DNA of 64,000 nucleotides. Source: Bacteroidales bacterium. Lineage in GTDB: Bacteria; Bacteroidota; Bacteroidia; Bacteroidales; VadinHA17. Below, one piece after another: positions 11,777-32,790 of the stretch (position 1 is the stretch's first letter; each line of letters opens with the position of its first letter). The position numbers and the translations under genes were made by a program. The notes under the pieces are model-generated. The model did not search any database. It was not told where the DNA came from and saw only the letters and a program-made list of their open reading frames with translations. The stretch lies in assembly GCA_011620595.1 (NCBI GenBank), contig WOYX01000038.1:2774-66773 (forward strand). The letters run 5' to 3'.

Positions 11777-12456
11777 ATGAGAAAAAGAGCATACTGATCA
11801 TTGATGATGAGGTCCAGATCCGCAGACTGCTGGAGATTTCACTGTCGGCTTATGAGTTCAATACCTTTTTTGCAGATAACGGGCAGCAGGGACTCGTGGC
11901 AGCTGCAACGCACCATCCTTCACTCATAATTCTGGATCTGGGTTTGCCGGATATGGATGGTCTGAAACTGCTTCTCAGGTTACGGGAATGGTTTACAAAA
12001 CCGATAATTGTCCTGTCAGTCCGAAGTTCGGAGGAAGATATTGTTGCGGCTCTGGATAACGGCGCAAATGATTATTTGACAAAGCCTTTCAGAAGCGGGG
12101 AGCTTATCGCCAGAATCCGCGCAGCAATCAGGTCGAATGAGGAAATAAAAGATAATCCATTGATGGAATTCGGGTCAATCACAATCGATATGATCAGTCA
12201 CGTTGTACGAAAGAATGGAGAGATCATCAAGCTTACTTCAACAGAATTTGCCTTGCTGGCTCTTCTGGCCTCAAACAGCGGCCGTGTCCTTACTCATCAG
12301 TTCATTCTTAAAGAGATATGGGGTTATGGCTATCTGGAACAAACTCAGTATCTGCGCGTTTTTATAGCACAACTCAGAAAGAAGATTGAGGACAATCCCT
12401 CAAAACCTGTATTGCTGGTTACAGAGTCAGGCATAGGATACAGGTTTGGTAATTAG
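11773..12456 (+). CDS. kdpE: KdpE-like OmpR-family response regulator
   Basis: 4-nt overlap with the kinase gene. Receiver domain LIILDLGLPDMDG. C-terminus YLRVFIAQLRKKIEDNPSKPVLLVTESGIGYRF closely parallels E. coli KdpE (YLRIYMGHLRQKLEQDPARPRHFITETGIGYRF). Confidence 0.8.
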   Translation: MNEKKSILIIDDEVQIRRLLEISLSAYEFNTFFADNGQQGLVAAATHHPSLIILDLGLPDMDGLKLLLRLREWFTKPIIVLSVRSSEEDIVAALDNGANDYLTKPFRSGELIARIRAAIRSNEEIKDNPLMEFGSITIDMISHVVRKNGEIIKLTSTEFALLALLASNSGRVLTHQFILKEIWGYGYLEQTQYLRVFIAQLRKKIEDNPSKPVLLVTESGIGYRFGN

Positions 12457-17925: not shown

Positions 17926-18488
17926 GCCATCACCTTGTCAATGACATACGCCTTTCTGTGCGAGATATCTTCAAACCCTCTCTCCTCCAGCATGGCCGAC
18001 AGCTTATCCGGCTCAAAGCCCCTGTGGCCCGTGAATCCCAGTCCATGGAACGACCCGTCTTCACTGCAGAGGTCAGCCACAGCAAGGTAGCCCCCGGGGT
18101 TGAGCATATCGCGGAATTTCCTGAAAATCTTCTCAACATCGCTGACATGATGAAGCACCATCAGGTTATAGATCAGGTCATATTTCTCATCACCGGGGTC
18201 TTCCTGTTCAAGGTCAAGGTGGAGCACCCTGAGGTTTTCAACTCCCTCTGCGGCAATCTTTTCATTCAGGACCTTCACCATTCCGGCGGAGCTGTCAATG
18301 AGGGTTATCTCTTTCAGCTGATCCTTAAGCAGCAGGCTCAGGAGTCCCGTGCCCGGACCGAATTCAAGAGCCCGCCACTCCCTGTTCAGGGGAATGACCT
18401 TCCTGATCTCCCCGGCTACAGCTGCAGCACGCTCGTGATACATCCGGTTCTTGTCCCATTCAGCTGCCTTATGATCAAATTCGTTCAT
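17844..18488 (-). CDS. Class I SAM-dependent methyltransferase
   Basis: Start set at ATG 18488 (MNEFDHKAAEWDKN). Motif I ALEFGPGTGLLS, then DLIYNLMVLHHV and LNPGGYLAV. Confidence 0.85.
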   Translation of the reverse strand: MNEFDHKAAEWDKNRMYHERAAAVAGEIRKVIPLNREWRALEFGPGTGLLSLLLKDQLKEITLIDSSAGMVKVLNEKIAAEGVENLRVLHLDLEQEDPGDEKYDLIYNLMVLHHVSDVEKIFRKFRDMLNPGGYLAVADLCSEDGSFHGLGFTGHRGFEPDKLSAMLEERGFEDISHRKAYVIDKVMADGSKKQFEVFLMTASLPAKAVQGSTG

Positions 18489-18756
18489 TGTTAAAAAATC
18501 GTTCAATATTCCATTACCTGTAAACAACAAAAATCTCCTGTACAATGTTAATTAATCCGGGGCAAAAGTAATACTCCGGGCAGAATAGCAGCACATTTGG
18601 CTTACTTTGGTCAGTATGGATGCACATTAATTATTGCCGGAAAAAAACAGGGACAGCACCTTTGTTTCAGCACTCCTGCCGCATCAGTCAGGGCAGGTGT
18701 CAGAAAATTATTATCTTTACTTTTTACAAACCTATGCAAATTAAATAAAAAACGGA

Positions 18757-19317
18757 TTGAAACTGTATATTCGGAATATGGTCTGCATCCGTTGCAAAAT
18801 GGTTGTAAAATCCGAGCTTGAAAAGCTTGGGCTGCCCTACAGTTACATTGAACTTGGTGAAGCAGAAATAGTTGGGGAGATTACTCCCGAACAGCGTCAA
18901 AAGCTCGCGGCAGCCCTGAAGAAGACAGGGCTCGAGCTGATGGAAGACAAAAAGAAGATCCTGGTTGAAAGAATAAAGACTTCTATAATTGAGCTGGTTC
19001 ACTTCAACGACGATCAGATAAAGGTTAACCTCTCCGACTACCTGAGCCAGAAACTGAATCACAACTACACTTACCTGGCCAATCTTTTCTCTGAAACAAA
19101 GGGAACGACCATAGAAAAGTATTACCTGACGCACAAAATAGAGAGAGTCAAGGAGCTGCTTGCATACGGTGAGCTAAATCTGACTGAGATAGCGTGGAAG
19201 CTTCACTATAGCAGCGTTGCACATCTGTCAAACCAGTTCAGGAAGATGACCGGGCTTACCCCGACTCAATTCAAAAACCTGAAGGGCAGGAGACCCACGT
19301 CACCTGAAAACATGTGA
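18757..19317 (+). CDS. AraC-family regulator with N-terminal HMA-like (MxCxxC) domain
   Basis: The only in-frame start after the stop at 18742 is TTG 18757. NMVCIRCKMVVKSELEKLGL is a ferredoxin-like metal-binding motif. C-terminal AraC HTH: LTEIAWKLHYSSVAHLSNQFRKMTGLTPTQF. Confidence 0.8.
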   Translation: MKLYIRNMVCIRCKMVVKSELEKLGLPYSYIELGEAEIVGEITPEQRQKLAAALKKTGLELMEDKKKILVERIKTSIIELVHFNDDQIKVNLSDYLSQKLNHNYTYLANLFSETKGTTIEKYYLTHKIERVKELLAYGELNLTEIAWKLHYSSVAHLSNQFRKMTGLTPTQFKNLKGRRPTSPENM

Positions 19318-19377
19318 ATTATGTAACATTCTCATGAAAATGTGTAAAGGTTCTCTAAATAAAGGACTCCAACTTTG
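19311..19377 (+). promoter_or_regulatory. Composite upstream element, copy a (faces kaiC)
   Basis: CATGTGAATTATGTAAC-N15-TGTAAA-N21-CAACTTTG. TGTAA cores at 19322 and 19343 (21 bp apart). The first site overlaps the AraC stop codon (19315-19317). Confidence 0.55.
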
Positions 19378-19568
19378 TAAATCGATTTGAAACTCTCCCG
19401 GCACATCTTTGCCTGAAGAGGTTGAAAATTTTGCTATTGAAACGGATTGTCCGGGACTTTAGTCACGTTGGAACATTATAATGACCGGATAAAAGCCGGA
19501 ATTAAATCTTAACGACGGGCTATTTATCTTAATTGTACCCTGATGATAGTTTATGTAATTGAAATTCA

Positions 19569-21305
19569 ATGAAAAAGGCTGAGCAAGCGTTATCACGGGC
19601 AACTCTTCAAAAGTCTCCCACCGGTATTCAGGGATTTGATGAAATAACGGCCGGCGGGTTACCTGCCGGCAGGCCAACCCTTGTCTGTGGCAGTGCAGGA
19701 TGCGGAAAGACACTTTTCGGGATTGAGTTCCTTGTCCGTGGCGCAACACTGTATAATGAACCGGGTGTGTTTATGTCATTCGAGGAGACCAATGATGAAT
19801 TGATAAAGAATGTTGCTTCTCTCGGGTTTGACCTTGAGGATCTCATTAAGCATAAAAAAATTGCACTTGACCACGTACATATAGAGCGAAGTGAAATAGA
19901 AGAGACAGGGGAATACGACCTGGAGGGGCTGTTCATACGACTTGGTTATGCCATTGACTCCATTGGTGCTAAGCGAGTTGTGCTGGACACCATTGAGTCG
20001 TTGTTTGCCGGACTGCCAAACCAGCTGATCCTGAGGGCTGAACTACGGAGGTTATTCCGCTGGTTAAAGGAAAAAGAGGTGACCGCAATTATAACAGGCG
20101 AACGCGGAGAGGAGACGCTTACAAGGCAGGGGCTGGAGGAATATGTTTCAGACTGTGTCATCATGCTTGACCACCGCGTTACCGAACAGACATCCACGCG
20201 TCGTTTAAGAGTTATAAAATACCGTGGTTCATTGCACGGGACCAATGAGTATCCTTTTCTTATTGATGAAACCGGCTTCTCAGTACTACCGGTAACCTCG
20301 CTGGGATTAGAACATAAAGTATCCAATGAAAGAATCTCCAGCGGGATAACCGAACTTGATAAAATGCTCGAAGGAAAGGGATATTACCGTGGCAGCACCG
20401 TACTTGTCTCAGGTACTGCAGGAGTGGGAAAAACCAGCCTGGCAGCTCACTTTGCCGAGGCGGCATGCAAACGAGGAGAACGGGTTCTATATTTCTGTTT
20501 CGAAGAATCACCCAGCCAGCTGATGCGCAATATGCGTTCCATAGGTATAAATTTAGAACCATGGGTGCATAAGGGGTTGCTGCAATTCCATGCCACCAGG
20601 CCAACATTTTACGGGTTGGAAATGCACCTTGCCGTAACCCACAAGGCTGTCAATGCTTACAAACCTGAGATTGTCATTATGGACCCGATAAATACTTTCA
20701 TTCTCGGGGATACAGAGAACGAAGTCAAATCGATGCTAATGCGCATTGTTGATTTCCTTAAGGGGAATCAGATTACAGCATTGTTTACAAGTCTGACTTC
20801 AAGTGAAAGCGCCCTTGAGAGTTCCGATGTGGGAATTTCCTCACTGATAGATACCTGGTTACTGCTTCGGGATATAGAATTGAACGGCGAACGCAACAGA
20901 GGGATGTATGTACTTAAATCACGGGGAATGGCAAACTCCAATCAGATCCGGGAATTTATCCTGACTGATACCGGCGTTAAACTACGGGAGGTTTATGCCG
21001 GTGCCAACGGAGTCCTGACCGGTTCTGCACGTATTGCACAGGAGGCTCATGAAAATGCCGGACTTTTAAGACAAAAACAGGATATTGAACGAAAAAGGCG
21101 TGAGCTGGAACGAAAACGAAAAGTAATGGAAGCCCGTGTTGCAGCCTTACATGCCGAATTTAAATCGCAAGAATCGGAAGCTCTTAAAAACCTGGAAGCA
21201 GAACAGGAAATTATCAGGCTGCAGAAAAGGAATAAGATGGAAATGGCGGCAAACAGAAAATCAGTCACTGAAAAGAGGAAAACGAAGAAACACACCAAAC
21301 CATAG
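19569..21305 (+). CDS. kaiC: KaiC homologue with C-terminal charged/coiled-coil-like extension
   Basis: Two RecA-like domains with Walker A motifs GSAGCGKT and GTAGVGKT. Phosphosite-equivalent segment [13 protein letters not shown] (Ser424-Ser425) aligns to the cyanobacterial SHISTITDTIILL. About 80 extra C-terminal residues are rich in heptad-like K/R/E ([49 protein letters not shown]...). Confidence 0.9.
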
Positions 21306-21310
21306 ACCCG

Positions 21311-21652
21311 ATGAACCCAATGAACGACAAATCCGAAGTAAAAACCAAAAGAAAGAAACCGCCAAAAGCAGAAGCCAACAGGTGGGTATTGCGATTATAT
21401 GTAGCAGGTCAGTCGCCAAAGGCTCTTACTGCCTTTGCCAATCTGAAGAAAATTTGTGAAGAGCAACTGGAAGGAAAATACTCCATTGAGGTAATTGATC
21501 TCTTGATAAACCCGCAGCTGGGTAATGAAGACCAGATCCTCGCCCTGCCTACATTAGTAAGGAAATTACCTGTACCGGTTCGTAAGATAATAGGTGACCT
21601 TTCAGATACTGAGCGGGTTCTTGTCGGACTAGATCTGTTTCATGTCGACTGA
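21311..21652 (+). CDS. kaiB: KaiB homologue 1 (Lys-rich N-terminal extension)
   Basis: [75 protein letters not shown] is a canonical KaiB thioredoxin-like core. Confidence 0.9.
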
Positions 21653-21683
21653 ATATTCAATCCGGCACTTTTAAGAAGTGATC

Positions 21684-22028
21684 ATGAAAAAGAAAAAGGA
21701 AGAAGCAAAAGAAACCACGGCATCGTTTGACGAGGCAATGTCCGGATTGCATGAAGGCAGATATATTTTGCGATTATTCATTACCGGTACAACCACCAAA
21801 TCGGTCCTTGCTCTTACAAACCTCAAGAAGATTTGCGAAGAGTATCTTGAAGGCAGGTATGAGCTGGAGGTGATAGACCTGTATCAGAATCCGGGTCTGG
21901 CAAAAGACGAACAGATAATTGCGGCCCCGACTCTGATCAAAAAACTGCCACTTCCGTTCCGTCGTATTATAGGCGATATGTCAGACATTGAGAAGGTACT
22001 TATGGGGCTGGAGATCAAGAAGCTGTAA
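21684..22028 (+). CDS. kaiB: KaiB homologue 2
   Basis: [75 protein letters not shown], roughly 60% identical to KaiB-1 by eye. ATG at 21684; the ORF track starts at GTG 21678. Confidence 0.9.
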
Positions 22029-22082
22029 ATCGGGCAACAGGTTGATCAAGTTAAATAAATCAGGTTTATCATAATAAAGTCA

Positions 22083-22796
22083 ATGACCAGGACAAAAGAA
22101 CAACTCATAATTGAGAATAAGGAATTGCAATCACGCCTCGCGGAAACTGAAGAGACTCTTGCAGCGATCCGGGGCGGAGAAGTAGATGCGATTATGGTAC
22201 CTGGCAGGGATGGAGAGCAGGTCTATTCCATCAGTTCTGCGGAAACTCCCTATCGCACTTTTATCGAAGAGATGAATGAGGGAGCAGTCACTCTATCCGG
22301 AGAAGGACTGGTGATATATTGTAATCAGAGATTTGCGGAGCTGGTGAACGAACCCATTGAACGGGTTATTGGTTCATACTTTAAGCGCTTCATTATTCCG
22401 AATGACAGATCCAAATTCGATAAATTGCTTGCGCATAAAAAACAAAATATAAATAATGTCCTGACGGTATCTCTTGTCAACTCATTATATCTGAAACTGT
22501 CATTTCACCTTTTACCTGCTTATCTCCAGGGTGATAATTGCATACTTGTCGCAACCGACATATCTGAAATAAAGAGGGAGGAGAAGAAACTCCTTAAGTT
22601 ATCACACTTGCTGGAACAAAAGCTGGAAATAATACAGCAATTGCGAATGCAACTGATTGAGAAAAAAATCGACTCCGATATTGAGCTAAAAAAATTGAAA
22701 AGTTCGAACAAAAAGCTGATTCAGAAGATAGCCAGACATGAGCAGGTCGAGGCAGATTTAAAGCTTAAGCTAAAGCATAAGAAGAAGACCCTCTGA
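22083..22796 (+). CDS. Stand-alone PAS protein with C-terminal coiled coil, no output domain
   Basis: The N-terminal segment ELQSRLAETEETLAAIRGGEVDAIMV..GEQVYSISSAETPYRTFIEEMNEGAVTLSGEGLVIYCNQRFAELV is typical of PAS S-box sensor proteins. The tail is K/E/L-rich heptads. No HisKA/HATPase. Confidence 0.8.
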   Translation: MTRTKEQLIIENKELQSRLAETEETLAAIRGGEVDAIMVPGRDGEQVYSISSAETPYRTFIEEMNEGAVTLSGEGLVIYCNQRFAELVNEPIERVIGSYFKRFIIPNDRSKFDKLLAHKKQNINNVLTVSLVNSLYLKLSFHLLPAYLQGDNCILVATDISEIKREEKKLLKLSHLLEQKLEIIQQLRMQLIEKKIDSDIELKKLKSSNKKLIQKIARHEQVEADLKLKLKHKKKTL

Positions 22797-22802
22797 ATTG
22801 TC

Positions 22803-24557
22803 ATGAAAGGACTATTGTTCATAATCCTTGCATTATTTTTGTTTAACGGATGCGCTTTGATGAGAATGCCTGATTTTGCCAGGGTACCTGAGAAGTCCGG
22901 CACATACCCTCAATTTACATCCGGAGATTCGCTTATAGGGCATCTCGATGAAGACCGGTCAGGCTATGACGTTTTTTTCTACGATCTGGATCTTCACCCT
23001 GACCTTGCCGGAAAGAGACTGGGAGGCAGGGTTGATATCCATTTCAGGGCAATTTCAAGTTTCAGTGAATTACGCATCGACCTGTATGATAACCTCGACA
23101 TAATCAGCCTGAAGCTTTCCGGGGATGAGATACCTTATTCGCGTAATGACCGTGCGGTGAATATCTCACTCCCTCGTCCGCTTATGTCCGGCCATGACTA
23201 CATTCTGACTGTGGAATATGAGGGCAAACCAGCGCGTGCAAAAAATCCGCCCTGGGGAGGTGGCGTTGTGTGGAGAAAAGATGATGATGGCAATCCCTGG
23301 GTGGCAGTATCATGCGAAACCGAAGGAGGAAGCCTCTGGTTTCCATGCAAGGATCACCTTTCAGACGAACCGGACAGCGTCAGGCTCCGAATGACAGTTC
23401 CGAAAGGCCTGCAGGTTGTCTCAAACGGCATAATGCAGAGTCATACATCACTTCAGGGGGAGGAAACATATACATGGCTTACGCGGTATCCTGTCAATAT
23501 TTACAACATCACCTTCTATGTTGGTAAATACGAGCATTTCAGTGATACGATGCTTACGCCACAGGGTATTCTTGACCTTGATTATTTTGTTTTGCCTCAG
23601 AACCTTGCCAGGGCCAAAAAACACTTTTTACAGGTTAAAGATGTTTTAAACCTCTATTCCGGGTTATACGGACCATACCCCTGGATGAAGGAGGGGTTCA
23701 GACTTGTCGAGTCACCCTTTGAAGGCATGGAGCATCAGACAGCCATCGCATACGGTAGCGGTTATTCAAACCGTGGCTGGCTGGGGGGTGATTATGTCAT
23801 TGTGCATGAAGCCGCGCACGAGTGGTGGGGTAACGCAGTGTCAGTCAGTGATTTCAGTGACATCTGGCTCCATGAGGGGTTTGCAACATATTCTGAGATA
23901 CTTTTTGCGGAAAGTACACTGGGCTATGAAAACTCACTGTTGTATGCCAGATACTATATAGCTGCTTCGATAAAGAACAGATTTCCCGTTGCCGGTCCGG
24001 CAGGTGTAAGCTATTGGAACTCCGGCGACAATGATGTTTACAACAAGGGAGCCATGATACTTCATACAATCCGCAATATCGTGAACGACAGCACTCTCTT
24101 TTTTGATATTCTGCAGACTTTTTATTCTGAGCACGCGGCTGCATCGCACGTCACAACGGAGGATTTCATCAGAATTGTCGAGCGTAAAACCGGGAAGGAT
24201 TGGCATGATTTCTTTGAGGTGTACCTGTACAGGCGCGAGGTACCTGTCCTGCACTGGTATTACAGCCCTGCGGGCATCGACGGAGCTGCAGGCTCGCCAT
24301 CGGGTAACGGCGGTCCGGTCATTGCTGCAAAATGGACCGGGGTTCCGGAGGGTTTCAGTATGCCGGTTGAATTATTCTGTGAGGAGCAGAATGTTACCAT
24401 CAGGATTGATGTTTCAACAGAGGCTGAACTCTTTTATGATGAGGCACTGTCTGAATGTGCCAGGCTGACCTGTAACAGGAGACTCTCTTATTTTGATCCG
24501 GTTACGGTTAAGAGCGTACTGCTCGAGGCCGCATCATACGGTCGCGGCACAGAATAA
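22803..24557 (+). CDS. M1-family metallopeptidase lipoprotein
   Basis: Lipobox LFNGC. Zinc motif HEAAHEWWGN followed by WLHEGFATY. Starts 6 nt after the PAS gene. Confidence 0.85.
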   Translation: MKGLLFIILALFLFNGCALMRMPDFARVPEKSGTYPQFTSGDSLIGHLDEDRSGYDVFFYDLDLHPDLAGKRLGGRVDIHFRAISSFSELRIDLYDNLDIISLKLSGDEIPYSRNDRAVNISLPRPLMSGHDYILTVEYEGKPARAKNPPWGGGVVWRKDDDGNPWVAVSCETEGGSLWFPCKDHLSDEPDSVRLRMTVPKGLQVVSNGIMQSHTSLQGEETYTWLTRYPVNIYNITFYVGKYEHFSDTMLTPQGILDLDYFVLPQNLARAKKHFLQVKDVLNLYSGLYGPYPWMKEGFRLVESPFEGMEHQTAIAYGSGYSNRGWLGGDYVIVHEAAHEWWGNAVSVSDFSDIWLHEGFATYSEILFAESTLGYENSLLYARYYIAASIKNRFPVAGPAGVSYWNSGDNDVYNKGAMILHTIRNIVNDSTLFFDILQTFYSEHAAASHVTTEDFIRIVERKTGKDWHDFFEVYLYRREVPVLHWYYSPAGIDGAAGSPSGNGGPVIAAKWTGVPEGFSMPVELFCEEQNVTIRIDVSTEAELFYDEALSECARLTCNRRLSYFDPVTVKSVLLEAASYGRGTE

Positions 24558-24603
24558 CATCACTTATCCATATTAAATTGGCTCTGTGACTGAAAGCTCA
24601 GTC

Positions 24604-24672
24604 AATGTGTGAATTATGTAATTTATACATGCAATTATGTAACAGTTACACAGGCCTTCCGGGGTAAATTTG
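24604..24672 (+). promoter_or_regulatory. Composite upstream element, copy b
   Basis: AATGTGTGAATTATGTAAT-N15-TGTAAC-N21-TAAATTTG. TGTAA cores at 24617 and 24638. Perfect TAnnTTTG at 24665-24672, 72 nt before the ATG at 24744. Confidence 0.65.
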
Positions 24673-24743
24673 CAGGTAATCTCTTATTAAGTCAACATGA
24701 GAATTGACAGATCCCTTATTAATACTCACATAAATCAAAGAAA

Positions 24744-25073
24744 ATGAAGAAGATCGTTCTCTGCCTGATGGCAACGGTGATGTCATTGGCGTTCATCCCG
24801 CTAGAATTAAACGCCAAACCAAAAGTTACCGCACCGCCGATCGAGGCCCCAAGTCCTGTTACTCCTGCAGAAGCAGCCAGGGCAAACGAATTGCTGCTAA
24901 GATTGGACGAAATCAAGAAGTCTGACAAATCAGATCTTAAAGCTTCCGAAAAGAAAGAGCTGCGAAGTGAAGTACGTGCAATAAACAGTGAGCTCAAGGC
25001 TATTGGAAATGGTGTATACATTTCAGGTGCAGCAGTGATTGTTATCATCATATTACTTATCGTCCTCCTTTAA
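24744..25073 (+). CDS. Small secreted/tail-anchored coiled-coil protein
   Basis: 109 aa. Signal peptide, Pro-rich linker, charged helical segment, C-terminal TM AAVIVIIILLIVLL. Confidence 0.65.
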   Translation: MKKIVLCLMATVMSLAFIPLELNAKPKVTAPPIEAPSPVTPAEAARANELLLRLDEIKKSDKSDLKASEKKELRSEVRAINSELKAIGNGVYISGAAVIVIIILLIVLL

Positions 25074-25093
25074 GAAATTAAAATCCAACATTC

Positions 25094-25255
25094 ATGAAAA
25101 ACTTACTTTACATAATTGCGGTTGTACTTGTTATTGCATGGGCAATAGGCTTTTTTGGGTTTAGAGCGGGAGGCCTGATACATGTGCTTTTGGTCATTGC
25201 CGCCATTGTAATTCTGGTCAGGATCATCCAGGGGAGAAGAATCCTCGGAGACTGA
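25094..25255 (+). CDS. lmo0937-like small membrane protein (53 aa, below ORF-track cutoff)
   Basis: Hand-translated: MKNLLYIIAVVLVIAWAIGFFGFRAGGLIHVLLVIAAIVILVRIIQGRRILGD*. Two TM helices with the G..IH.LLVIA.I..I pattern of this widespread small-protein family. Confidence 0.7.
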   Translation: MKNLLYIIAVVLVIAWAIGFFGFRAGGLIHVLLVIAAIVILVRIIQGRRILGD

Positions 25256-25377
25256 TGTCAGATAAAATCATTAATCGCTCCGGGGTATCCGAAGTTCATC
25301 GTGCATGCCTGAAAACAAACAGATCAGTTATGGGCAGCCCGATGCCGGATATCCGGAGCAGGCTTTAAAAACAGGAA

Positions 25378-25824
25378 ATGGACACCGAAACCAACATACT
25401 GAGATCACCTGGTGCAGGAGAACTGCCAGCTGATGCTTCATCAGCTCTCAGGCAGGATCTTCCGGATTTAATCCGCAACATGAAACTAAGCAATGCATGG
25501 ATAAGGGGGAATCTCAATTCTATGATTCTTGTAAAAAATACCGAAAAGAATGTTATGCTGGTTGCATTGCATGAGGGGACGGAGATTGTTTCATACCAGT
25601 CAAATGATTCCATCACCTTTCAGATTATTGAAGGGAAGCTGGAATTTTATACAAGGAAAACTTCAGCTGCTATCGGCATGGGAGAGGTGTTGACTCTGAA
25701 TGACAAAGTGAAGTACCGGTTTACAGCCAGCGAAGAGACTGTTCTGCTTCTCTCTATTGCAAAGGATCGTGCCGGGAGTGCCATGACCACATGGAACAGG
25801 GAAGAAGCCATGGATGATTTATGA
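25378..25824 (+). CDS. Hypothetical protein, possibly cupin-fold
   Basis: 148-aa ORF. The beta-rich segment VMLVALHEGTEIVSYQSNDSITFQIIEGKLEFYTRKTSAAIGMGEVLTLNDKVKYRFTA resembles a cupin barrel. Start uncertain. Confidence 0.5.
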   Translation: MDTETNILRSPGAGELPADASSALRQDLPDLIRNMKLSNAWIRGNLNSMILVKNTEKNVMLVALHEGTEIVSYQSNDSITFQIIEGKLEFYTRKTSAAIGMGEVLTLNDKVKYRFTASEETVLLLSIAKDRAGSAMTTWNREEAMDDL

Positions 25825-25912
25825 CAGAAGCGTTATAGTGATAATTCACAAAAACCCGGTTTAACCATTAGATAAATAACCTGATGAGAGCATCAGATAA
25901 AATCATACTGAA

Positions 25913-26116
25913 ATGAGAATAAACAACAATCTTTCCAGACTGAAAATACGCGACTTTTCCCCCAGGCAACAATCACGCGATTTTCCTTTCAGGCTTAAAT
26001 TACCCAACTATCCTTCACGGCTTAAATTACGCAACTATAGGCTGAAGCTGTTTATGGAATCCCTGGTCATTGCCACGGCTGCAGTACTGCTGATGGTTAT
26101 TTTACTTTCCTCCTGA
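25913..26116 (+). CDS. Possible 67-aa protein: four 9-aa basic repeats plus a C-terminal TM helix
   Basis: MRINNNLSRLKIRDFSPRQQS/RDFPFRLKL/PNYPSRLKL/RNYRLKLFM/ESLVIATAAVLLMVILLSS. The repeats derive from a 27-bp DNA repeat, so coding status is uncertain. Confidence 0.3.
   Translation: MRINNNLSRLKIRDFSPRQQSRDFPFRLKLPNYPSRLKLRNYRLKLFMESLVIATAAVLLMVILLSS
25946..26053. repeat. Degenerate 27-bp tandem repeat x4
   Basis: Units start at 25946, 25973, 26000 and 26027. GGCTTAAATTAC(C/G)CAACTAT occurs at 25992 and 26019. Neighbouring units share 12-20 nt. Confidence 0.65.
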
Positions 26117-26200
26117 CAATGGACCGTTGCTGTAAGGCTGCCCGGATTATGGAGGCAGGCCTTGCAGGCTTTATAACATTTAAAATAAAAACAGATACAC

Positions 26201-26410
26201 ATGAAAAAAGCAGCTATTATCATTCTGATCATTGGACTGGCGTTGACGATTTTTACAACGGTCACTTACTTTACCAAAGAAAAAGTTGTTGATCTGGGAG
26301 AACTGGAGATCACGGCGAACAAGCGCCATAACCTTAACTGGTCGCCTTTTATTGGTCTTGGTGTAATGGCAGTGGGAGGAGTCTTGATGCTGGTTCCGTT
26401 CAAAAAGTAG
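26201..26410 (+). CDS. Small two-TM membrane protein
   Basis: 69 aa: MKKAAIIILIIGLALTIFTTV...FIGLGVMAVGGVLMLVPFKK. Followed by a strong terminator. Confidence 0.6.
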   Translation: MKKAAIIILIIGLALTIFTTVTYFTKEKVVDLGELEITANKRHNLNWSPFIGLGVMAVGGVLMLVPFKK

Positions 26411-26440
26411 GCTGAGCCCGGTTCCGTGCATTGAGTACAA

Positions 26441-26478
26441 AGCCTGGACTGCAAGTATTAAGCAGTCCGGGCTTTTTG
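26441..26478 (+). terminator. Intrinsic terminator after the 69-aa membrane protein gene
   Basis: 12-bp stem AGCCTGGACTGC / GCAGTCCGGGCT (one G-U pair) followed by TTTTT. The loop contains the stop codon of the convergent gene 26458-27078. Confidence 0.7.
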
Positions 26479-27078
26479 CGCATGGAAATAGGTCAGTCCG
26501 TTCAGCACGGTCATATCCATTACTTTAAACCCGTAATCCTGTAGCAATAATGAAACACTGCTCTGTGACATCCGGGTATTGGTTCTTGAATCCAGAAAGC
26601 TGTATAACCTGTTGATGAATGGAACACTCGAGTATATCGCGTTTTCAATGTCGTCAAAATAATCCCCGTCAGAAAATGCAGAAGTGCTGTTGTTCAGTTT
26701 ATATCTGTCAATTTCCTTATTGTCAATGAAACGCCCCAGCAGGTTGCTTTTCTGTGGCATGATGTGGTAACATGACCGGATAAAGTCTGTAATCCCCCTT
26801 ATCTTATTCAGTTCCGTCAGGTTCACAAGGGTCCTTGCCCTCTTCATCTCTTCGGCATCAAAATAGAAATGCTGCCTGAATGAAAGTACTACCATATCCT
26901 GCTCCTGTGCGAGGCCAAGCTTGCTGACATAATCAAGGAAAGCCGATCCGCCTTCAGCGACCAGGGTGTCGAGAATGCTGCCGGTAACCTGCAGGTTTAC
27001 CGGCCTGCTGTGCATGCTTGTGCTTCCATTTGGGTAAGAGAAAGCATCCGTCTTGTCAACCGGTAAATAATTTTTCAT
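26458..27078 (-). CDS. Hypothetical protein (206 aa)
   Basis: Long ORF with balanced composition and no motif I can name. Preceded by element copy c. Confidence 0.6.
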   Translation of the reverse strand: MKNYLPVDKTDAFSYPNGSTSMHSRPVNLQVTGSILDTLVAEGGSAFLDYVSKLGLAQEQDMVVLSFRQHFYFDAEEMKRARTLVNLTELNKIRGITDFIRSCYHIMPQKSNLLGRFIDNKEIDRYKLNNSTSAFSDGDYFDDIENAIYSSVPFINRLYSFLDSRTNTRMSQSSVSLLLQDYGFKVMDMTVLNGLTYFHAQKARTA

Positions 27079-27109
27079 GCAAGAATCTTTTTAGATAGAA
27101 TTTGTTCTG

Positions 27110-27179
27110 TAAAGATGAACATCAACCTGGCCGAAAGTGTTACATCATTCAGTATATTAGTTACATGATTCACACATGA
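27110..27179 (-). promoter_or_regulatory. Composite upstream element, copy c
   Basis: Minus strand reads TCATGTGTGAATCATGTAAC-N15-TGTAAC-N21-CATCTTTA. TGTAA cores start at 27165 and 27144. The -7-like box ends 32 nt before the start at 27078. Confidence 0.6.
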
Positions 27180-27266
27180 GAAGTAATGACATGCGTGAGC
27201 TGGACTGCAGCACAAAAAAAGAGCTGTCCCATTTCCGGGACAGCCCCTTGCAGTATAAGCATTTTG

Positions 27267-27965
27267 CTAAAAACGGTATCCCAAAGAGAGACCGTAACCT
27301 GTATTCCTGTATGCGGTCTGGTCATCAGAGATCCAGGCATACTCCGGATTGATTTTCAGCAATCCAAGCTGCGCATTCAGATGAATGAACACTCCCATCG
27401 CAAGTTCATAACCGAACAGGATATTGGCGCCGGCATCAAATGGCCTGTAATAAGCATTCTCAACCAGATCGGTCCAGTCATCAACAGAATTTTTAAATTT
27501 CACCGTTCGTTCAGTCGATACCGAATTGTACCGGGTGGTCTCCTTGCCTGAAATCCCGAAGGCCAGATAAGGTCCGAACCCGAGCAACAGATGCCCGTTG
27601 CCCAATTGTGGTCTGTACAGCAGGGTTAACGGCAACTCGACATAGGAGAGTCTGGTTGTCGTGGTATAATCACCGGAGGCCTTTGTAGGAGGGGTATAGA
27701 ATTCATTCTTTGACCCCTTGACGGAAAAGAGTAGTCCGGGCTGAAAGTCGAAATTGGGTGCTACAGGAATATTAACATTCAACCCGGCATGAAAACCTGT
27801 CAGGAGCCCATTCTCAAGCTTATCCCCGTTACTGTTCGTCCCGTTAATATTCTGGAAGTTAACCCCGCCCAGAAGACTAATGCCAATCTGAGCCTGCATC
27901 GCCAGTGATGACAGGATAAGGATTACGGATAATGTCAGAAACTTCATTTTCATTTTCATTTTCAT
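27267..27965 (-). CDS. Outer-membrane beta-barrel protein (OMP_b-brl-type porin family)
   Basis: Signal peptide ending AMQAQ, alternating beta-strand pattern, C-terminal GYGLSLGYRF. The N-terminus MKMKMKMK is encoded by (ATGAAA)x3 followed by ATGAAG. Confidence 0.8.
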   Translation of the reverse strand: MKMKMKMKFLTLSVILILSSLAMQAQIGISLLGGVNFQNINGTNSNGDKLENGLLTGFHAGLNVNIPVAPNFDFQPGLLFSVKGSKNEFYTPPTKASGDYTTTTRLSYVELPLTLLYRPQLGNGHLLLGFGPYLAFGISGKETTRYNSVSTERTVKFKNSVDDWTDLVENAYYRPFDAGANILFGYELAMGVFIHLNAQLGLLKINPEYAWISDDQTAYRNTGYGLSLGYRF

Positions 27966-28008
27966 ATAGTATTAAGATTTCTAATTTATTGAATTGATAC
28001 AGATACTA

Positions 28009-28680
28009 CTATTGGTTTGCTGCTTTTTCAGCTTCAGCTATCATCTTCTCATTGGCGGTGATCAGGAACTCCACCCTGCGGTTCTCGGTTCTCCCTTCAG
28101 CCGTATTGTTTTCGTATTTGGGAGTGGTTTCTCCATACCCTTTAATTGTAAGGCGGCTGGCTGCTGTGCCCTGGCCTTCAAGATAACCTGAAACTACTGC
28201 GGCACGCCTTTCAGACAATGCCTGGTTGTAAGCTATGCTGCCCTTGCTGTCGGTATGACCCTGTATCTCAATATCCGTATCGGGATAGGCGTCAAGCACC
28301 TTAATAAGTTTATCAAGGCTTGTTCTGGCTTCGGCTGACAATGTCGACTCGTCAAATCCGAACAGGACATTACTGTTGAATTCAACAATTATACCTTCTC
28401 CGACGCGTTCAACTTTCGCATCAGGAACGGTTTTCATTATTTCCTCAGCCTGTTTGTCCATCTGATTCCCAATTATCGCACCCGTGGCACCGCCTACCGT
28501 GGCACCGATAATAGCACCCAGGGCAGTGTTTCCCGACACTCTTCCAATAACGGCTCCCATGGCACCTCCCGTAGCAGTCCCTACAACAGCACCCTTCTGG
28601 GTCTTGTTCCAGGATGCACAGCCTGATATCATCATTACCATGCTGACAATCATGATTAAACTCACTCTCGACGTTCTCAT
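28009..28680 (-). CDS. OmpA-family lipoprotein with glycine-zipper N-terminal region
   Basis: Lipobox MISGCAS. Gly-zipper GAVVGTATGGAMGAVIGRVSGNTALGAIIGATVGGATGAIIG. OmpA_C motifs FGFDESTL, GHTDSKGS..YNQALSERRA, NRRVEF. Confidence 0.9.
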   Translation of the reverse strand: MRTSRVSLIMIVSMVMMISGCASWNKTQKGAVVGTATGGAMGAVIGRVSGNTALGAIIGATVGGATGAIIGNQMDKQAEEIMKTVPDAKVERVGEGIIVEFNSNVLFGFDESTLSAEARTSLDKLIKVLDAYPDTDIEIQGHTDSKGSIAYNQALSERRAAVVSGYLEGQGTAASRLTIKGYGETTPKYENNTAEGRTENRRVEFLITANEKMIAEAEKAANQ

Positions 28681-28736
28681 AATTAATTATTTAGATGTTT
28701 ATTAATATTCAATTTGAATAATCGGAGATATATTGA

Positions 28737-28807
28737 TAAAGGTAGACATGAAGGCGACGGTCAGCGTTACATAACTTTGTAAATGAGTTACATGATTCAC
28801 ACATGAG
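28737..28807 (-). promoter_or_regulatory. Composite upstream element, copy d (faces OmpA gene)
   Basis: Minus strand reads CTCATGTGTGAATCATGTAAC-N15-TGTAAC-N21-TACCTTTA. TGTAA cores at 28792 and 28771. The first 21 nt are identical to copy c. Confidence 0.6.
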
Positions 28808-28816
28808 ACAAGCGAT

Positions 28817-28860
28817 GATGTGTGAATTGTGTAATTCTTAATTGTCATTGTGATTGTTGT
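28817..28860 (+). promoter_or_regulatory. Partial copy e of the element (first site only), inverted relative to copy d
   Basis: GATGTGTGAATTGTGTAAT. The position +21 reads TGATT instead of TGTAA, and there is no -7 box at the expected offset. Confidence 0.35.
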
Positions 28861-29070
28861 GATAGTCTGGCTACTTAAGTTATTCGGAGCATTTGAATAC
28901 CTGAGCAACATTCAGCTTTAGCACCTGCCTCTGAACCCGGCATGGACAATCTGTGTAAATTATTGCTTGTGATTGGTGGTAAAACAACTGCCATTACATG
29001 CTCTATATGGTAATTTATTCTTTATTTTGTGTGATATTTAATTGTAAATGACACGGTTTCAAAATAAAGT

Positions 29071-32010
29071 ATGGCAGTCGTAACAAAAAAAACAAAATCA
29101 CAGGTTTCATCTGCCGGGAAAACCCCAAGAAAGGTTCCTGAAATGTTTCCGATAGTTGGAATTGGTGCTTCAGCCGGAGGGCTGGAGGCACTGGAGCAGT
29201 TTTTGGGTAACGTACCTGACAAAAGCGGGATGGCCTATGTTGTCATCCAGCATCTTGACCCTACCCAGAAGGGCATGTTGCCGGACCTGCTCCAGAGGAT
29301 CACTTCAATGAAGGTTTACCAGGCAGCAGACCGTATGCCGGTAAAGGTAAATTCCGTATACGTCATTCCTCCGAATAAAAGCATGTCAATACTCAACGGG
29401 GTTCTTCACCTGTTTGAGCCCGTTGAAACCAGGGGTATGCGTCTCCCGATCGACTTTTTCCTCCGCTCCCTGGCAGATGACAGACAGGATCTCAGCATCG
29501 GGGTCATCCTTTCAGGAATGGGTTCAGACGGAAGCACCGGCCTCAAGGCTATAAAGGAAAAAAACGGGATAGTGGTTGTGCAGGATCCTGCAGATGCAAA
29601 ATTCGACAGCATGCCCCGCAGCGCTATCGAGTTTGTGCTGGTGGATATCATAGCTGCAGCACGTGAGCTGCCGGGCAGAATCATGGAATTTCTTAAGCAC
29701 ATCCCTGCCATAAGATCAGATCTGAACACGGAAATAAAGGACAAGAGTTCGCTGGATAAAATAATTATCCTATTGCGGACTTATACCGGAAACGATTTCT
29801 CCCAGTATAAGAAAAATACCCTTTATCGCCGGATTGAAAGACGCATGTCCGTGCATAAGATAGATAAAATTGTCACTTATGTGCACTTTCTCCAGGGAAA
29901 TCCGAAGGAGGTGGAGATTCTTTTCAAGGAGTTGCTGATAGGGGTGACCGGTTTCTTCCGCGATCCCGCAGTCTGGGTAAAGCTGAAAGAAGCTCTTTTG
30001 CCGGAAGTACTTTCCGGGATGCAACCAGGCACTGTTTTGAGAGCCTGGGTCCCGGGCTGCTCCACAGGAGAAGAGGCATATTCTCTGGCAATTGTATTCG
30101 GGGAGGCACTTGAAAAGTTAAATCAGCATAGCGGCACCGCCCTGCAGATTTTTGCTACTGATATTGATCCCGATGCAATTGATATCGCCAGGAAAGGGTT
30201 GTATCCGGCAAATATTGCTGCCGATATTTCGGCCGACCGCCTCAACAGGTATTTTATTCCCACCGAAGAGGGATACCGGATCAAGACCGAGATCAGGGAA
30301 ATGGTTGTGTTTGCACAGCATAATATTATCCTGCACCCTCCTTTTACAAAGCTTGACATATTATCATGCCGCAACCTGCTGATATATATGGACCCTGAGT
30401 TGCAGAAGAAACTCATAGGGTTGTTTTACTACAGCATAAATCCTGACGGTATATTGCTGCTGGGAGGGTCCGAGACCCTTGGTAACCAGAACCACCTGTT
30501 TACTCCGGTCGACACTAAATTGAAAATATACAAACGAACACGGAGCAGTCATCTGCCTGCATATTTTGATTTTCCCTCCTCATTTTCCAGGTCAAAATCA
30601 TCAGCGATCAAAGACCTCATTCCTGACACCAGGGATCTTAATTTTCAGGCGCTTGCCGACCGTCTTCTGCTTGATTACTATACACCTGCCGGTGTACTTG
30701 TAAATGATTATGGCGATGTGATTTACATCCACGGCCATACGGGCAGATATCTTGAACCGGCTGCCGGCAAGGCGAACATGAACATCTTTGCCATGTTGCG
30801 TGAAGGGCTTCGTAATGAATTTCATCATGCCTTCCGCAGGGCTGTCACAAATAAGGAGACGGTTGTTTTGCACAACCTCCGGATCAACGTCAATGGCAAT
30901 TCACAATTAGTAGATATTGAGATCAGGTGGATAGACAAGCCGGATCTCCTGTACGGCACCTTAATGATCATCTTTGCCGAGGTGAAGGAGGTCGCTGCCA
31001 TCAGCCCTGTTTCAAAGTCAAGGGGGCATTCCAAAGACTCAACGAGGGAGCAAGAGTTGGAAACCGAGTTACAACGGATGCGTGAGGTAATGCAGAACTC
31101 TCTCGAGGAGGTTCAGACTTCACAGGAGGAGCTGCGGTCAACCAACGAGGAACTCCAGTCCACCAATGAAGAGCTGCAATCGACAAATGAAGAGCTCACA
31201 ACATCAAAGGAAGAGATGCAGAGCCTGAATGAGGAGCTTCAGACAGTGAATGCTGAATTGCAGGCCAAGGTAGATGATTACTCCAGGGTTAACAATGACA
31301 TGAAGAACCTGCTTAACAGCACTGAAATTGCCACCCTGTTTCTCGACAAGGAATTAAACATCAGACGCTTTACTCTTCAGGCCACAAAGATATTCAAACT
31401 CATTAAAAGTGACATCGGCCGGCCATTTACCGACCAGGTATCAGACCTTGATTATCCCGGACTGGCTGAAGATGCACGCGAAGTATTAAGGACTCTGATT
31501 TTTATCCAGAAAGAGATCCCGGCTGTTGACGGCCGCTGGTTCCTGGTACGCATAATGCCCTATCGTACTTTCGATGACAGGATTGACGGCCTTGTAATTA
31601 CTTTTATCAATATATCCGAGCATAAAAGAACCGAACAGAAATTGCTCCTGAGCGAAAAGAAAAACAGAATCCTGTTGAATGCCACCACTGAAGTTAAAAT
31701 AGTCCTGGCGGATGACAGTTCAGTAATGGACCTCAGCCCGGAAGCCGAATCTTTTTTCGGGAAGAACAGGGAGGAGTGTTTAAATAAAGACTTTGTCACG
31801 ATGTTTGTTCCTGAAAAATATCACAGAAGTGTTGAAAGGGATATTAAAGCGTTGCTCAGCAAGGGTTCGGGCGGGAGAATTAAAATGAGGGTTCTGACCG
31901 CAGCAGGAGAGATGCAGGTTGTAGATTTTTTTGTTAACTTATCGCTGAATAAAATGAAAAAGGCAGAAGGATTGATCCTGTCTATAAACATGCAACAGAA
32001 CAATGAATAA
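29071..32010 (+). CDS. CheB methylesterase-CheR methyltransferase-PAS multidomain protein without kinase domain
   Basis: 979 aa. CheB-like IVGIGASAGGLEALEQFL...VVIQHLDP. CheR-like FFRDPAVW...WVPGCSTGEEAYSLAI...ATDID...CRNLLIY. Heptad block STNEELQSTNEELQSTNEEL, then PAS regions. No HisKA/HATPase. Confidence 0.9.
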   Translation: MAVVTKKTKSQVSSAGKTPRKVPEMFPIVGIGASAGGLEALEQFLGNVPDKSGMAYVVIQHLDPTQKGMLPDLLQRITSMKVYQAADRMPVKVNSVYVIPPNKSMSILNGVLHLFEPVETRGMRLPIDFFLRSLADDRQDLSIGVILSGMGSDGSTGLKAIKEKNGIVVVQDPADAKFDSMPRSAIEFVLVDIIAAARELPGRIMEFLKHIPAIRSDLNTEIKDKSSLDKIIILLRTYTGNDFSQYKKNTLYRRIERRMSVHKIDKIVTYVHFLQGNPKEVEILFKELLIGVTGFFRDPAVWVKLKEALLPEVLSGMQPGTVLRAWVPGCSTGEEAYSLAIVFGEALEKLNQHSGTALQIFATDIDPDAIDIARKGLYPANIAADISADRLNRYFIPTEEGYRIKTEIREMVVFAQHNIILHPPFTKLDILSCRNLLIYMDPELQKKLIGLFYYSINPDGILLLGGSETLGNQNHLFTPVDTKLKIYKRTRSSHLPAYFDFPSSFSRSKSSAIKDLIPDTRDLNFQALADRLLLDYYTPAGVLVNDYGDVIYIHGHTGRYLEPAAGKANMNIFAMLREGLRNEFHHAFRRAVTNKETVVLHNLRINVNGNSQLVDIEIRWIDKPDLLYGTLMIIFAEVKEVAAISPVSKSRGHSKDSTREQELETELQRMREVMQNSLEEVQTSQEELRSTNEELQSTNEELQSTNEELTTSKEEMQSLNEELQTVNAELQAKVDDYSRVNNDMKNLLNSTEIATLFLDKELNIRRFTLQATKIFKLIKSDIGRPFTDQVSDLDYPGLAEDAREVLRTLIFIQKEIPAVDGRWFLVRIMPYRTFDDRIDGLVITFINISEHKRTEQKLLLSEKKNRILLNATTEVKIVLADDSSVMDLSPEAESFFGKNREECLNKDFVTMFVPEKYHRSVERDIKALLSKGSGGRIKMRVLTAAGEMQVVDFFVNLSLNKMKKAEGLILSINMQQNNE

Positions 32011-32554
32011 GAAGGAGCCAAATCTAACAGAAAGTCAGTTACTCCGGTTAAAGGCTGAAGAGAAGCTGAAGAAGAAACGAAGGAAAATACCGTCAGAGAT
32101 TCCGGAAGCTGACGCGAAAAAACTTCTCCATGAACTTCAGGTTCATCAGATAGAACTGGAGATGCAGAATGAGGAGTTGAGGCAGGCAAATGCTATTGCC
32201 GAAGAGGCTCTCAGGCGTTATACCATGCTATATGATTTTGCACCCATGGGCTACTTTATCCTGGAGAGTGACGGCAGCATCGCGGATCTCAATTTCACCG
32301 GCGCCGAGATTTTGGGCGATAAGCGTTTCAGCCTTCTTAACAGTAACTTTAAGCTGTTCATTGCCGATTCCTACAAGCCGGTATTCAATAAGTTCTTCAG
32401 GAAAGTCTATACAAGTACCGCGAAGGAGTCATGTGAGCTTGTTCTCGCATACAATGGCAGGACTCCCCGTCATGTATATGTCGAAGGAGTCGTCACCGGG
32501 GATGAACGGCAATGCCTCCTTTCTGTAGTCGATATCTCGGGATTTAAAAGGTGA
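32003..32554 (+). CDS. Stand-alone PAS protein (overlaps the CheB-CheR-PAS gene by 8 nt)
   Basis: LLHELQVHQIELEMQNEELRQANAIAEEALRRYTMLYDFAPMGYFILESDGSI... is the linker-plus-PAS module usually found inside long PAS/kinase proteins. Confidence 0.8.
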   Translation: MNKKEPNLTESQLLRLKAEEKLKKKRRKIPSEIPEADAKKLLHELQVHQIELEMQNEELRQANAIAEEALRRYTMLYDFAPMGYFILESDGSIADLNFTGAEILGDKRFSLLNSNFKLFIADSYKPVFNKFFRKVYTSTAKESCELVLAYNGRTPRHVYVEGVVTGDERQCLLSVVDISGFKR

Positions 32555-32620
32555 TCATCTCCATTACCTGATATCCGGCTTACCTTGCCGGATATCTGAG
32601 ATTCCGATACCACCGGTCAA

Positions 32621-32790
32621 CGGGGGCTCCCGGTTCTTAGCCCGGGTTTTCTCCTCTTAACTGACGCGGGTTTTCACCTGATTTTTAGCACGGGGTTTTC
32701 TCCTCTTAACTGACACGGCCACCTCCTACCTTCTTGCACGGGTTTTCCACCCTTTTCTGACGTGGGAGTTATCCTCTTTCCCCGGGTGTG
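32621..32790. repeat. Degenerate ~24-bp-period tandem array (7-8 units headed by GGGTTTTC)
   Basis: GGGTTTTC at 32644, 32668, 32693 and 32740, with weaker heads at 32621, 32717, 32763 and 32784. The perfect 22-mer GGGTTTTCTCCTCTTAACTGAC occurs at 32644 and 32693. Confidence 0.7.

Follow-up and report, generated by a model that had tools for sequence, protein, structure and literature searches.

How might a KaiBC system without KaiA, whose sensor-like partner lacks a kinase, be built and be coupled to the cell? The question is raised by a locus in a 64-kb stretch of Bacteroidales DNA (contig WOYX01000038.1; hereafter the window) that encodes KaiC, two KaiB proteins and a PAS-plus-coiled-coil protein (PAS-cc), followed by an M1 metallopeptidase. 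To our knowledge, KaiA-independent KaiBC systems are far commoner than the cyanobacterial clock, their mechanism is known for Rhodobacter sphaeroides only and their coupling to the cell is unexplained. A preliminary description of the window, made from the letters alone, had reported the run kaiC-kaiB-kaiB-PAS-M1. The list of open reading frames (ORFs) contains all five genes, and the gaps given there before the two kaiB genes (5 nt and about 30 nt) and before the M1 gene (6 nt) agree with the spacing that we find along the run: 5, 25 (31 counted from the kaiB2 ATG), 54 and 6 nt. We put at roughly 0.6 the probability that the first four of these genes form a KaiA-independent Kai cassette of the KaiC2 group, in a two-KaiB subclade, that by homology would use an hourglass-type mechanism. 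New here are the invariance of the cassette, the old KaiB duplication, the homology of the partner module, the linkage of that module to kaiB and the coiled coil in place of a kinase.

Sequence hallmarks of a probably KaiA-independent KaiC

Domains were called with Pfam and NCBIfam profiles against the proteins of the window. KaiC matches PF06745 twice and scores 750 bits with NF006799 (cutoff 408); with TIGR02655, the cyanobacterial KaiC equivalog, its score of 355.6 lies below the cutoff of 546. In a phmmer search of the PDB the top match was R. sphaeroides KaiC (RsKaiC; 8DBA), with 690 bits over residues 13-546, the coil included, and cyanobacterial KaiC chains scored 373 bits or less. A three-protein alignment gave identities of 57% to RsKaiC and 35% to Synechococcus elongatus KaiC (SeKaiC), the latter sequence having been checked as identical to 1U9I. 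The two Walker A motifs that the preliminary description had seen in the 578-aa protein are intact in CI and CII, as are both catalytic Glu-Glu pairs (GSAGCGKT with FEET and GTAGVGKT with FEES, aligned to the two reference proteins). Its placing of Ser424-Ser425 at the cyanobacterial phosphosite is confirmed by the same alignment: in GISSLIDTW, the two serines (nucleotides 20838-20843) stand opposite S431/T432 of SeKaiC and S413/S414 of RsKaiC (GLSSLMD), and Ser419 aligns with T426 of SeKaiC. Both serines are invariant among 26 KaiC homologues, and the ratio of nonsynonymous to synonymous substitution rates (dN/dS) of the KaiC core is 0.05.

The protein ends in a charged tail for which about 80 extra residues and heptad-like spacing had been proposed. 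The spacing stands, in register with the coil of RsKaiC, whereas the extra length shrinks to about 60 residues beyond SeKaiC. Among 92 residues the tail has a single Gly and a single Pro; its helical region covers approximately residues 486-573, and five clean heptads (L499/I506/L513/M520/L527), together with V524/F531, coincide with hydrophobic positions of the R. sphaeroides coil. A single-chain AlphaFold2 model, with an overall predicted local distance difference test (pLDDT) score of 52, builds residues 486-573 into a single helix, whose part from 500 to 560 has pLDDT 71-85, so that both the heptad register and the model point to a coiled coil and not to a disordered tail. Selection on the tail is purifying and weaker than on the core (dN/dS 0.26 versus 0.05). 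The tail is found in all homologues of about 577-581 aa, and such KaiC relatives are abundant in Bacteroidales metagenome-assembled genomes (MAGs). Taken together, the alignments support assignment of the protein as a KaiC2-type, KaiA-independent, R. sphaeroides-like KaiC, whose sequence hallmarks it carries.

A neighbour-joining tree, of limited sampling and with S. elongatus as sole outgroup, places KaiC with the relatives of RsKaiC, in a two-KaiB clade (bootstrap 89) whose sister is the one-KaiB Rhodobacter/Rhizobium clade (bootstrap 100). Members of the two-KaiB clade are the window, Pararhizobium and MAGs labelled Proteobacteria, Anaerolineaceae and Balneolaceae. With RsKaiC as its closest match and NF006799 above its cutoff, KaiC does not group with RadA-type ATPases. 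The preliminary description had likened this Bacteroidota locus to the R. sphaeroides hourglass on sequence hallmarks, and the likeness holds in the 8DBA match through the coil, the Ser-Ser pair, the tail and the TIGR02655 score below cutoff. The hallmarks were to be expected for the clade and are less novel than that description implied, since they have been published clade-wide: long-tailed KaiCs (about 50 residues more) make up a large clade and belong mainly to the kaiC2 subgroup, which has two serines (Pitsawong et al. 2023, PMC10076222), and a Bacteroidetes-only group encodes just KaiB2/KaiC2-like proteins, with two serines in KaiC2 (Schmelling et al. 2017, PMC5520375). For members of the KaiB2/KaiC2 systems, which include those of Rhodopseudomonas palustris and Legionella pneumophila, KaiA-independent autophosphorylation is reported, and PAS histidine kinases adjoining kaiBC are known from purple bacteria (PMC10931921). 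A tandem KaiB pair, a kinase-less partner and the structure of the cassette are not described in the 2017 survey (PMC5520375), nor did a literature search of limited coverage return a description of tandem kaiB or of a kinase-less partner in Bacteroidota. As had been noted for the window, none of its sizeable ORFs encodes KaiA, a SasA-like (KaiB-domain) kinase or a CikA-like architecture.

Two KaiB paralogues of old divergence

Both KaiBs match PF07689 and are also called KaiB by NCBIfam. They are paralogues, as first proposed, at an identity corrected from about 60% to 56% over the 87-aa KaiB domain and 45% over the full length. R. sphaeroides KaiB (RsKaiB) is the best PDB match of both, being nearer to KaiB1 (65%) than to KaiB2 (57%), and Legionella KaiB (4KUN) matches both much more weakly. 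In a comparison of 54 loci, identity is 74% among KaiB1 orthologues, 69% among KaiB2 orthologues and 47% between paralogues, the last alike within and between loci; the duplication is therefore old and has proceeded without gene conversion. An orthologous second KaiB occurs in Pararhizobium too. Strong purifying selection on the domains (dN/dS 0.04 for KaiB1 and 0.06 for KaiB2) shows that neither gene is a pseudogene. The Lys-rich N-terminal extensions reported earlier are present but weakly constrained (dN/dS 0.33-0.48). That of KaiB1 is a basic, poorly conserved stretch of 25 residues (dN/dS 0.33); that of KaiB2 contains a motif, F-[DE]-x-[SA]-[LM], that is conserved across phyla.

The paralogues also differ in their invariant signatures, which include GDLS in KaiB1 and consist of Y-xLRLYITGxTxxS, QIIAAPTL and GDMS in KaiB2. 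Both keep the three C-terminal fold-switch prolines (P58/P65/P67 of RsKaiB). In RsKaiB, cis-trans isomerisation of these prolines is what limits the fold switch (PMC11551320), and by this proline signature both would be KaiBs of the fold-switching type. KaiB1 corresponds to RsKaiB, whereas KaiB2 would be a further binder, conserved in its own right, for which an adaptor role or binding with different kinetics may be speculated. Some metagenomic cassettes encode a third, stand-alone KaiB right after a histidine kinase that carries the partner module treated below (positions 7188-7526 of locus L149; also L118, L148, L153 and L159; loci are designated by L and a number).

Could two KaiBs, one acting as a brake and the other supplying delayed antagonism, sustain an oscillation without KaiA? 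Such an oscillator would accord with the age of the duplication, with the strong conservation and paralogue-specific signatures of both copies, with the separate KaiC clade formed by two-KaiB loci and with the third kaiB at some of them. However, KaiA-like activity is not expected from the KaiB fold, and the constitutive-autokinase architecture of KaiC, with its coiled-coil tail, yields an hourglass in R. sphaeroides (PMC10076222). There is also no experimental hint of oscillation in the two-KaiB clade, and we regard a self-sustained oscillator as improbable.

A helix/PAS module encoded directly after kaiB

PAS-cc begins with a helix (residues 5-30) that bears the motif ETEETLAAIRGGEVDA, continues with a PAS domain (about residues 36-165) and ends in a coiled coil (residues 160-236). 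Pfam returns PAS families only for this protein, in agreement with the earlier reading of a PAS-plus-coiled-coil protein without output domain: there is no transmitter domain, and residues 160-236 form a single C-terminal helix of 77 residues in the AlphaFold2 model (overall pLDDT 54). The output route had been called not obvious on account of the duplicated KaiB and this kinase-less partner. Kinase-less it is, but it also proves to be a homologue of the sensor module of the kai-linked kinase of Rhodobacter. Over its first 97-170 residues it shows homology to the N-termini of post-kaiB kinases in three Alphaproteobacteria, namely the HWE kinase of R. sphaeroides KD131 (42.5% identity over 87 aa, E 5e-16), the kinase of Rhizobium BG4 (39% over 79 aa, E 2e-14) and a 563-aa protein of Pararhizobium (40% over 167 aa, E 5e-34). 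The four proteins have in common L-x-x-R-L-x-E-A-E-E-T-L-x-A-I-R-x-G-E-V-D-A.

The module is combined with a wide range of outputs. At distant two-KaiB loci it is fused to different outputs: in L075 to a hybrid kinase (1006 aa in all), in L079 to a kinase of the HisKA_3 type, in L073 to what remains of a HisKA domain and in L078 to another PAS domain. A search of residues 1-170 of PAS-cc against 1.84 billion cluster representatives returned 4,525 proteins at E≤1e-10. The module stands at the very start of these proteins, which are 146-1975 aa long and include multi-PAS kinases, hybrids and one GGDEF-EAL protein, with short forms in the minority. We also ran the search in reverse, from the module to its genomic surroundings, using 80 metagenome loci picked solely by a non-Bacteroidales alignment of the N-module (A4), 68 of which had at least 450 nt of upstream DNA. 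A broader alignment (A3) was too diverse for this locus scan. A kaiB gene lay within 1.2 kb upstream in 63 of the 68 loci, two kaiB genes did so in 50 of those, and kaiC lay beyond where the contig permits. From this linkage we conclude that the helix/PAS module is a dedicated partner of KaiC2-type cassettes. By its sequence and position, PAS-cc belongs to the N-helix/PAS sensor proteins encoded directly downstream of kaiB (a working name, as there is no curated family), in which an N-terminal helix with L-x-x-R-L-x-E-x-E-E-x-L-x-A-I-R-x-G-E-V-D-A precedes a PAS domain.

In modular signalling proteins, the N-terminal domain governs the C-terminal transmitter. The simplest inference, since N-terminal domains exert such control, is that the module senses the state of KaiBC and works on the output side, as an adaptor functionally analogous to SasA. 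Stated more broadly, it most probably either reads the state of KaiBC or feeds a signal into KaiBC, and passes the signal on. In the Bacteroidales form, a conserved coiled coil of 75 residues takes the place of the transmitter, and signalling would therefore run through protein-protein contacts.

The fourth gene might instead be the decaying, functionless remnant of a histidine kinase, a reading to which the full kinases in relatives from other lineages lend some colour, as does the PAS-cc gene of L071 (10508-10762; MAG Bacteroidetes bacterium GWA2_40_15), which is cut to 84 aa next to an intact kaiC and two intact kaiB genes. We find decay hardly credible. PAS-cc keeps a length of 229-245 aa in about 69 loci at 48-96% identity, invariant residues occur along the whole coil, and dN/dS is 0.13-0.20 in all three parts of the protein. 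The coil is functional, because it is constrained (0.16) much like the PAS domain (0.13). We also considered the coil as a remnant of a dimerisation and histidine phosphotransfer domain and rejected this: it has no conserved His, and kinase similarity ends at residue 170.

Extent of the cassette and the M1 peptidase

In 80 genome loci compared by tblastn and clustering, the order kaiC-kaiB1-kaiB2-PAS is kept wherever there is enough DNA to judge it; L071, with its shortened PAS-cc gene, is the sole apparent exception. The four-gene cassette is thereby invariant across some 70 genomes. Some single MAGs hold two or three full cassettes (L013/L043/L044; L049/L060; L062/L067/L074), with 82-97% identity between their KaiCs, either because the cassettes are genuine paralogues or because the bins mix strains.

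The fifth gene of the run encodes a protein with the Peptidase_M1 domain and its N-domain, an HEAAHEWWG...E zinc motif and a signal peptide ending in a lipobox Cys. The identity and position given for it in the preliminary description hold, but it is not a conserved member of the cassette. In favour of a five-gene operon with this lipoprotein as a functional Kai output, the M1 gene follows the PAS-cc gene on the same strand at 6 nt, with no terminator-like site between them, and the complete order recurs in the closest relatives (L001-L005, L012, L014, L023, L026, L038). However, the gene adjoins the cassette in only about 13 of 81 loci, all of them closest relatives. L009 and L016 have it upstream of the cassette, beside an AraC-family gene and in reverse orientation, and the other loci lack it. 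It is also missing from alphaproteobacterial and metagenomic cassettes. As its signal peptide and Cys lipobox indicate, the peptidase is extracytoplasmic, whereas the Kai proteins are cytoplasmic. From its sporadic occurrence and its location we conclude that M1 is a lineage-specific neighbour and not a component of the cassette, and an M1-based Kai output is very improbable.

Relation to known Kai systems

The characterised relative is R. (Cereibacter) sphaeroides KD131 (PMC10076222; 8DBA, 8FWI, 8FWJ), which shares with the window the aligned Ser-Ser pair of a 57% identical KaiC, a tail that matches the dodecamer-building coil, a kaiB directly downstream of kaiC, a next gene that opens with the N-helix/PAS module and, as far as the 64-kb window reaches, the lack of KaiA. 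Like Rhizobium BG4, Sinorhizobium B11 and Falsirhodobacter, whose annotated loci consist of kaiC, a single kaiB and a PAS (HWE) kinase, KD131 has one kaiB and a PAS-HWE kinase, whereas the window has two KaiBs and a 237-aa kinase-less protein; the window locus is in this sense a variant of the R. sphaeroides layout. Its partner has a C-terminal coiled coil and neither the second PAS domain nor the HWE kinase. The window KaiC belongs to the sister clade, both window KaiBs have Gly88 (S. elongatus numbering) where RsKaiB has Asn, and the R. sphaeroides locus is plasmid-borne in an alphaproteobacterial phototroph whereas that of the window is chromosomal in Bacteroidales.

Plasmid p3 of Pararhizobium qamdonense (NZ_CP119568.1) has the same four-gene order, with a KaiC of 59% identity, one KaiB that matches KaiB1 (69%), another that matches KaiB2 (56% versus 46%) and the N-module at 40% over 167 aa. 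Unlike PAS-cc, its fourth protein is a 563-aa PAS-kinase-receiver hybrid, and the locus is known from annotation only. With KaiABC of S. elongatus the window shares a double-domain KaiC with Walker A motifs, Glu-Glu pairs and an equivalent of T426, a three-proline KaiB and a sensor that would read the Kai state. It differs in having Ser-Ser and not Ser-Thr, a tail about 60 residues longer, no KaiA in the window, 35% KaiC identity and a partner that uses the helix/PAS module instead of a KaiB-like (SasA) or PsR (CikA) domain.

A shared upstream element and a possible regulon

About 150-250 nt upstream of kaiC lies an element (Table 1) that, together with a Bacteroidetes -7-like CAACTTTG, is the probable operator and promoter of the kai cassette. 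Allowing at most one mismatch, its motif (TGTGAATnATGTAAC, 15 nt, TGTAA) occurs 6 times in the window versus 0.05 expected, always within the low-GC stretch at 19-33 kb. With up to two allowed, 61 of 74 loci have it on the + strand no more than 600 nt ahead of kaiC, mostly near -150, and at related loci 148 of 157 copies are intergenic. The motif also precedes genes of the orf24744 family and genes for OmpA/Gly-zipper proteins, outer membrane protein (OMP) beta-barrels and small membrane proteins. Being common to several neighbouring genes, it is ruled out as a kaiC-specific element, and its distribution suggests that the motif-bearing genes form a common regulon. A scan for sigma-70 promoters and terminators gave counts at chance level and is uninformative for Bacteroidota.

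A candidate binder and regulator of the motif is an AraC-family protein with an N-terminal CxxC (HMA-like) domain that is encoded 250 nt upstream of kaiC. At 25 of 81 loci an orthologue (58-92% identity) lies no more than 8 kb from the cassette; its position and orientation vary. The product of orf24744 has a signal peptide, a C-terminal transmembrane helix and no Pfam match; members of its family occur close to the kai cassette, variously arranged, at 15 loci or more, and the motif precedes them in 13 of 15.

Genomic setting

The window derives from a Bacteroidota chromosome, as judged from the marker genes for SprA and an LpxC-FabZ fusion and from Bacteroidales MAG relatives in which KaiC is 96% identical and synteny is preserved. 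GC content is 44-46% over the kai region (18001-34000), against 51-57% in the housekeeping stretches that flank it at 14-18 kb and at 34-64 kb. The lower GC content would fit a segment that is accessory or was transferred; in Alphaproteobacteria the cassette is also plasmid-borne.

The sole complete two-component pair in the window consists of a DUF4118-HisKA kinase and an OmpR-type regulator beside TrkH. Pfam returns nothing for four conserved ORFs in the vicinity of the cassette, and orthologues of two of them (25378-25824 and 26458-27078) accompany the closest relatives of the window. A CheB-CheR fusion with PAS domains was considered as a Kai-linked gene and set aside: a similar fusion adjoins the cassette in L078, but the neighbour is not recurrent. 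Further away, a sulphur-transport cluster has its Sulf_transp transporter split over two ORFs, which may be a two-gene form or a frameshift. An identity as a defence system was rejected, PADLOC giving just a generic P-loop match of KaiC to mad8.

Table 1 Features of the window at and around the kai cassette
Feature	Coordinates	Strand	Remarks
Conserved ORF	1705-3447	-	no Pfam match
Sulphur-transport cluster	4267-7697		Sulf_transp over two ORFs, plus rhodanese-domain genes
Two-component pair	10199-12456		kinase and regulator
AraC-family regulator	18757-19317	+	candidate regulator of the motif
Upstream element	19313-19377	+	three same-face repeats TGTGAAT-T-ATGTAAC, 15 nt, TGTAA (19313-19347), then -7-like sequence (19370-19377); probable operator and promoter
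kaiC	19569-21305	+	578 aa; KaiC2 type
KaiC C-terminal extension	21024-21302	+	residues 486-578; charged helix aligned with RsKaiC coiled coil
kaiB1	21311-21652	+	113 aa
kaiB2	21678-22028	+	116 aa; GTG start, ATG at 21684
PAS-cc gene	22083-22796	+	237 aa
M1 peptidase gene	22803-24557	+	584 aa
Further motif copies	24608, 27161(-), 28788(-), 28821, 32787		window scan
orf24744	24744-25073	+	109 aa
Conserved ORF	25378-25824	+	no Pfam match
Conserved ORF	26458-27078	-	no Pfam match
CheB-CheR fusion gene	29071-32010	+	979 aa; long EELxxxNEEL coiled coil, two PAS domains
ORF overlapping the CheB-CheR fusion gene	32003-32554	+	183 aa; no Pfam match
Conserved ORF	32886-33323	+	no Pfam match

Discussion

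The hourglass-type mechanism that we favour is modelled on the Rhodobacter work, in which a coiled-coil dodecamer, KaiA-independent autophosphorylation and KaiB/ADP-driven dephosphorylation give an hourglass (PMC10076222). By homology, double-ring hexamers of the window KaiC would pair tail-to-tail through the C-terminal coiled coil, and this pairing would leave the A-loop region exposed and so allow autophosphorylation on Ser424/Ser425 without KaiA. KaiB, after a slow, proline-limited fold switch, would bind the CI ring of phosphorylated, ADP-bound KaiC; once bound, it would lift the ATPase activity and drive dephosphorylation as the ATP/ADP ratio drops. The cassette would then act as an hourglass or energy-state timer that the environment resets, and not as a clock that runs freely. 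The kinase-less PAS-cc would read the state of KaiBC, or feed into it, and relay by protein contacts of its coiled coil.

Several points weigh against this reading. Hourglass behaviour of the two-KaiB subclade is extrapolated from an RsKaiC of 57% identity. The absence of KaiA covers the 64-kb window, and a KaiA- or KaiA3-like gene may lie elsewhere in the genome. The structural models of KaiC and PAS-cc are of single chains and of low overall confidence (pLDDT 52-54), because the underlying alignments are shallow, so that just their long helices are usable. For the PAS-cc protein, no PAS cofactor can be inferred, and an input role, like that of CikA, may apply instead of the output role that we consider simplest. 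Finally, the hosts are uncultured Bacteroidales of sediments, fens and groundwater and are probably non-phototrophic, which makes a day-night role uncertain.

The nature of the hosts bears equally on the main competing account, a stress or energy-status module without time-keeping, in which phosphorylation of KaiC would report ATP/ADP or redox state, as has been proposed for KaiBC of Legionella, and tune an envelope or stress regulon. Besides the non-phototrophic, environmental Bacteroidales hosts, the operator-like motif that kaiC has in common with OmpA/Gly-zipper, OMP beta-barrel and small membrane protein genes fits such a role, and Legionella homologues of KaiC2 have been tied to the stress response (cited in PMC5520375). 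On the other hand, both KaiBs carry the triple-proline signature of slow fold switching, and in KaiC the phosphosite, the T426-equivalent and the coiled coil are all strongly constrained, which is more than a simple sensor needs. A stress switch and a timer are, moreover, biochemically compatible. We consider a module without time-keeping possible but rather unlikely, and retain the KaiA-independent, hourglass-type cassette as the preferred reading.

How such a cassette is coupled to the cell may be sketched tentatively. The helix/PAS module could be a generic coupling device of KaiA-less KaiBC systems, long sought, that binds directly to KaiC or the KaiB-KaiC complex. KaiB1 would then be the CI-binding brake and KaiB2, by way of F-[DE]-x-[SA]-[LM], a bridge between KaiC and the PAS protein; the Bacteroidales form might relay by partner switching to an unlinked regulator, possibly that of an envelope regulon with the TGTGAATnATGTAAC operator. 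Taken as a whole, this scheme is doubtful.

Whatever the route of coupling, the KaiBC system of a large group of Bacteroidales, most of them uncultured, is a sister subtype with two KaiBs of ancient divergence, and the same subtype is scattered over Proteobacteria, Chloroflexota and Balneolota. Experimentally accessible carriers exist in the cultured Paucihalobacter ruber (L064) and in the plasmid-borne versions of Pararhizobium. Whichever output domain it is joined to, the helix/PAS module nearly always follows kaiB directly, which makes it a testable candidate for the input or output link of KaiBC timers. The chief value of the locus is that it brings to light this widely conserved, Kai-coupled sensor module.

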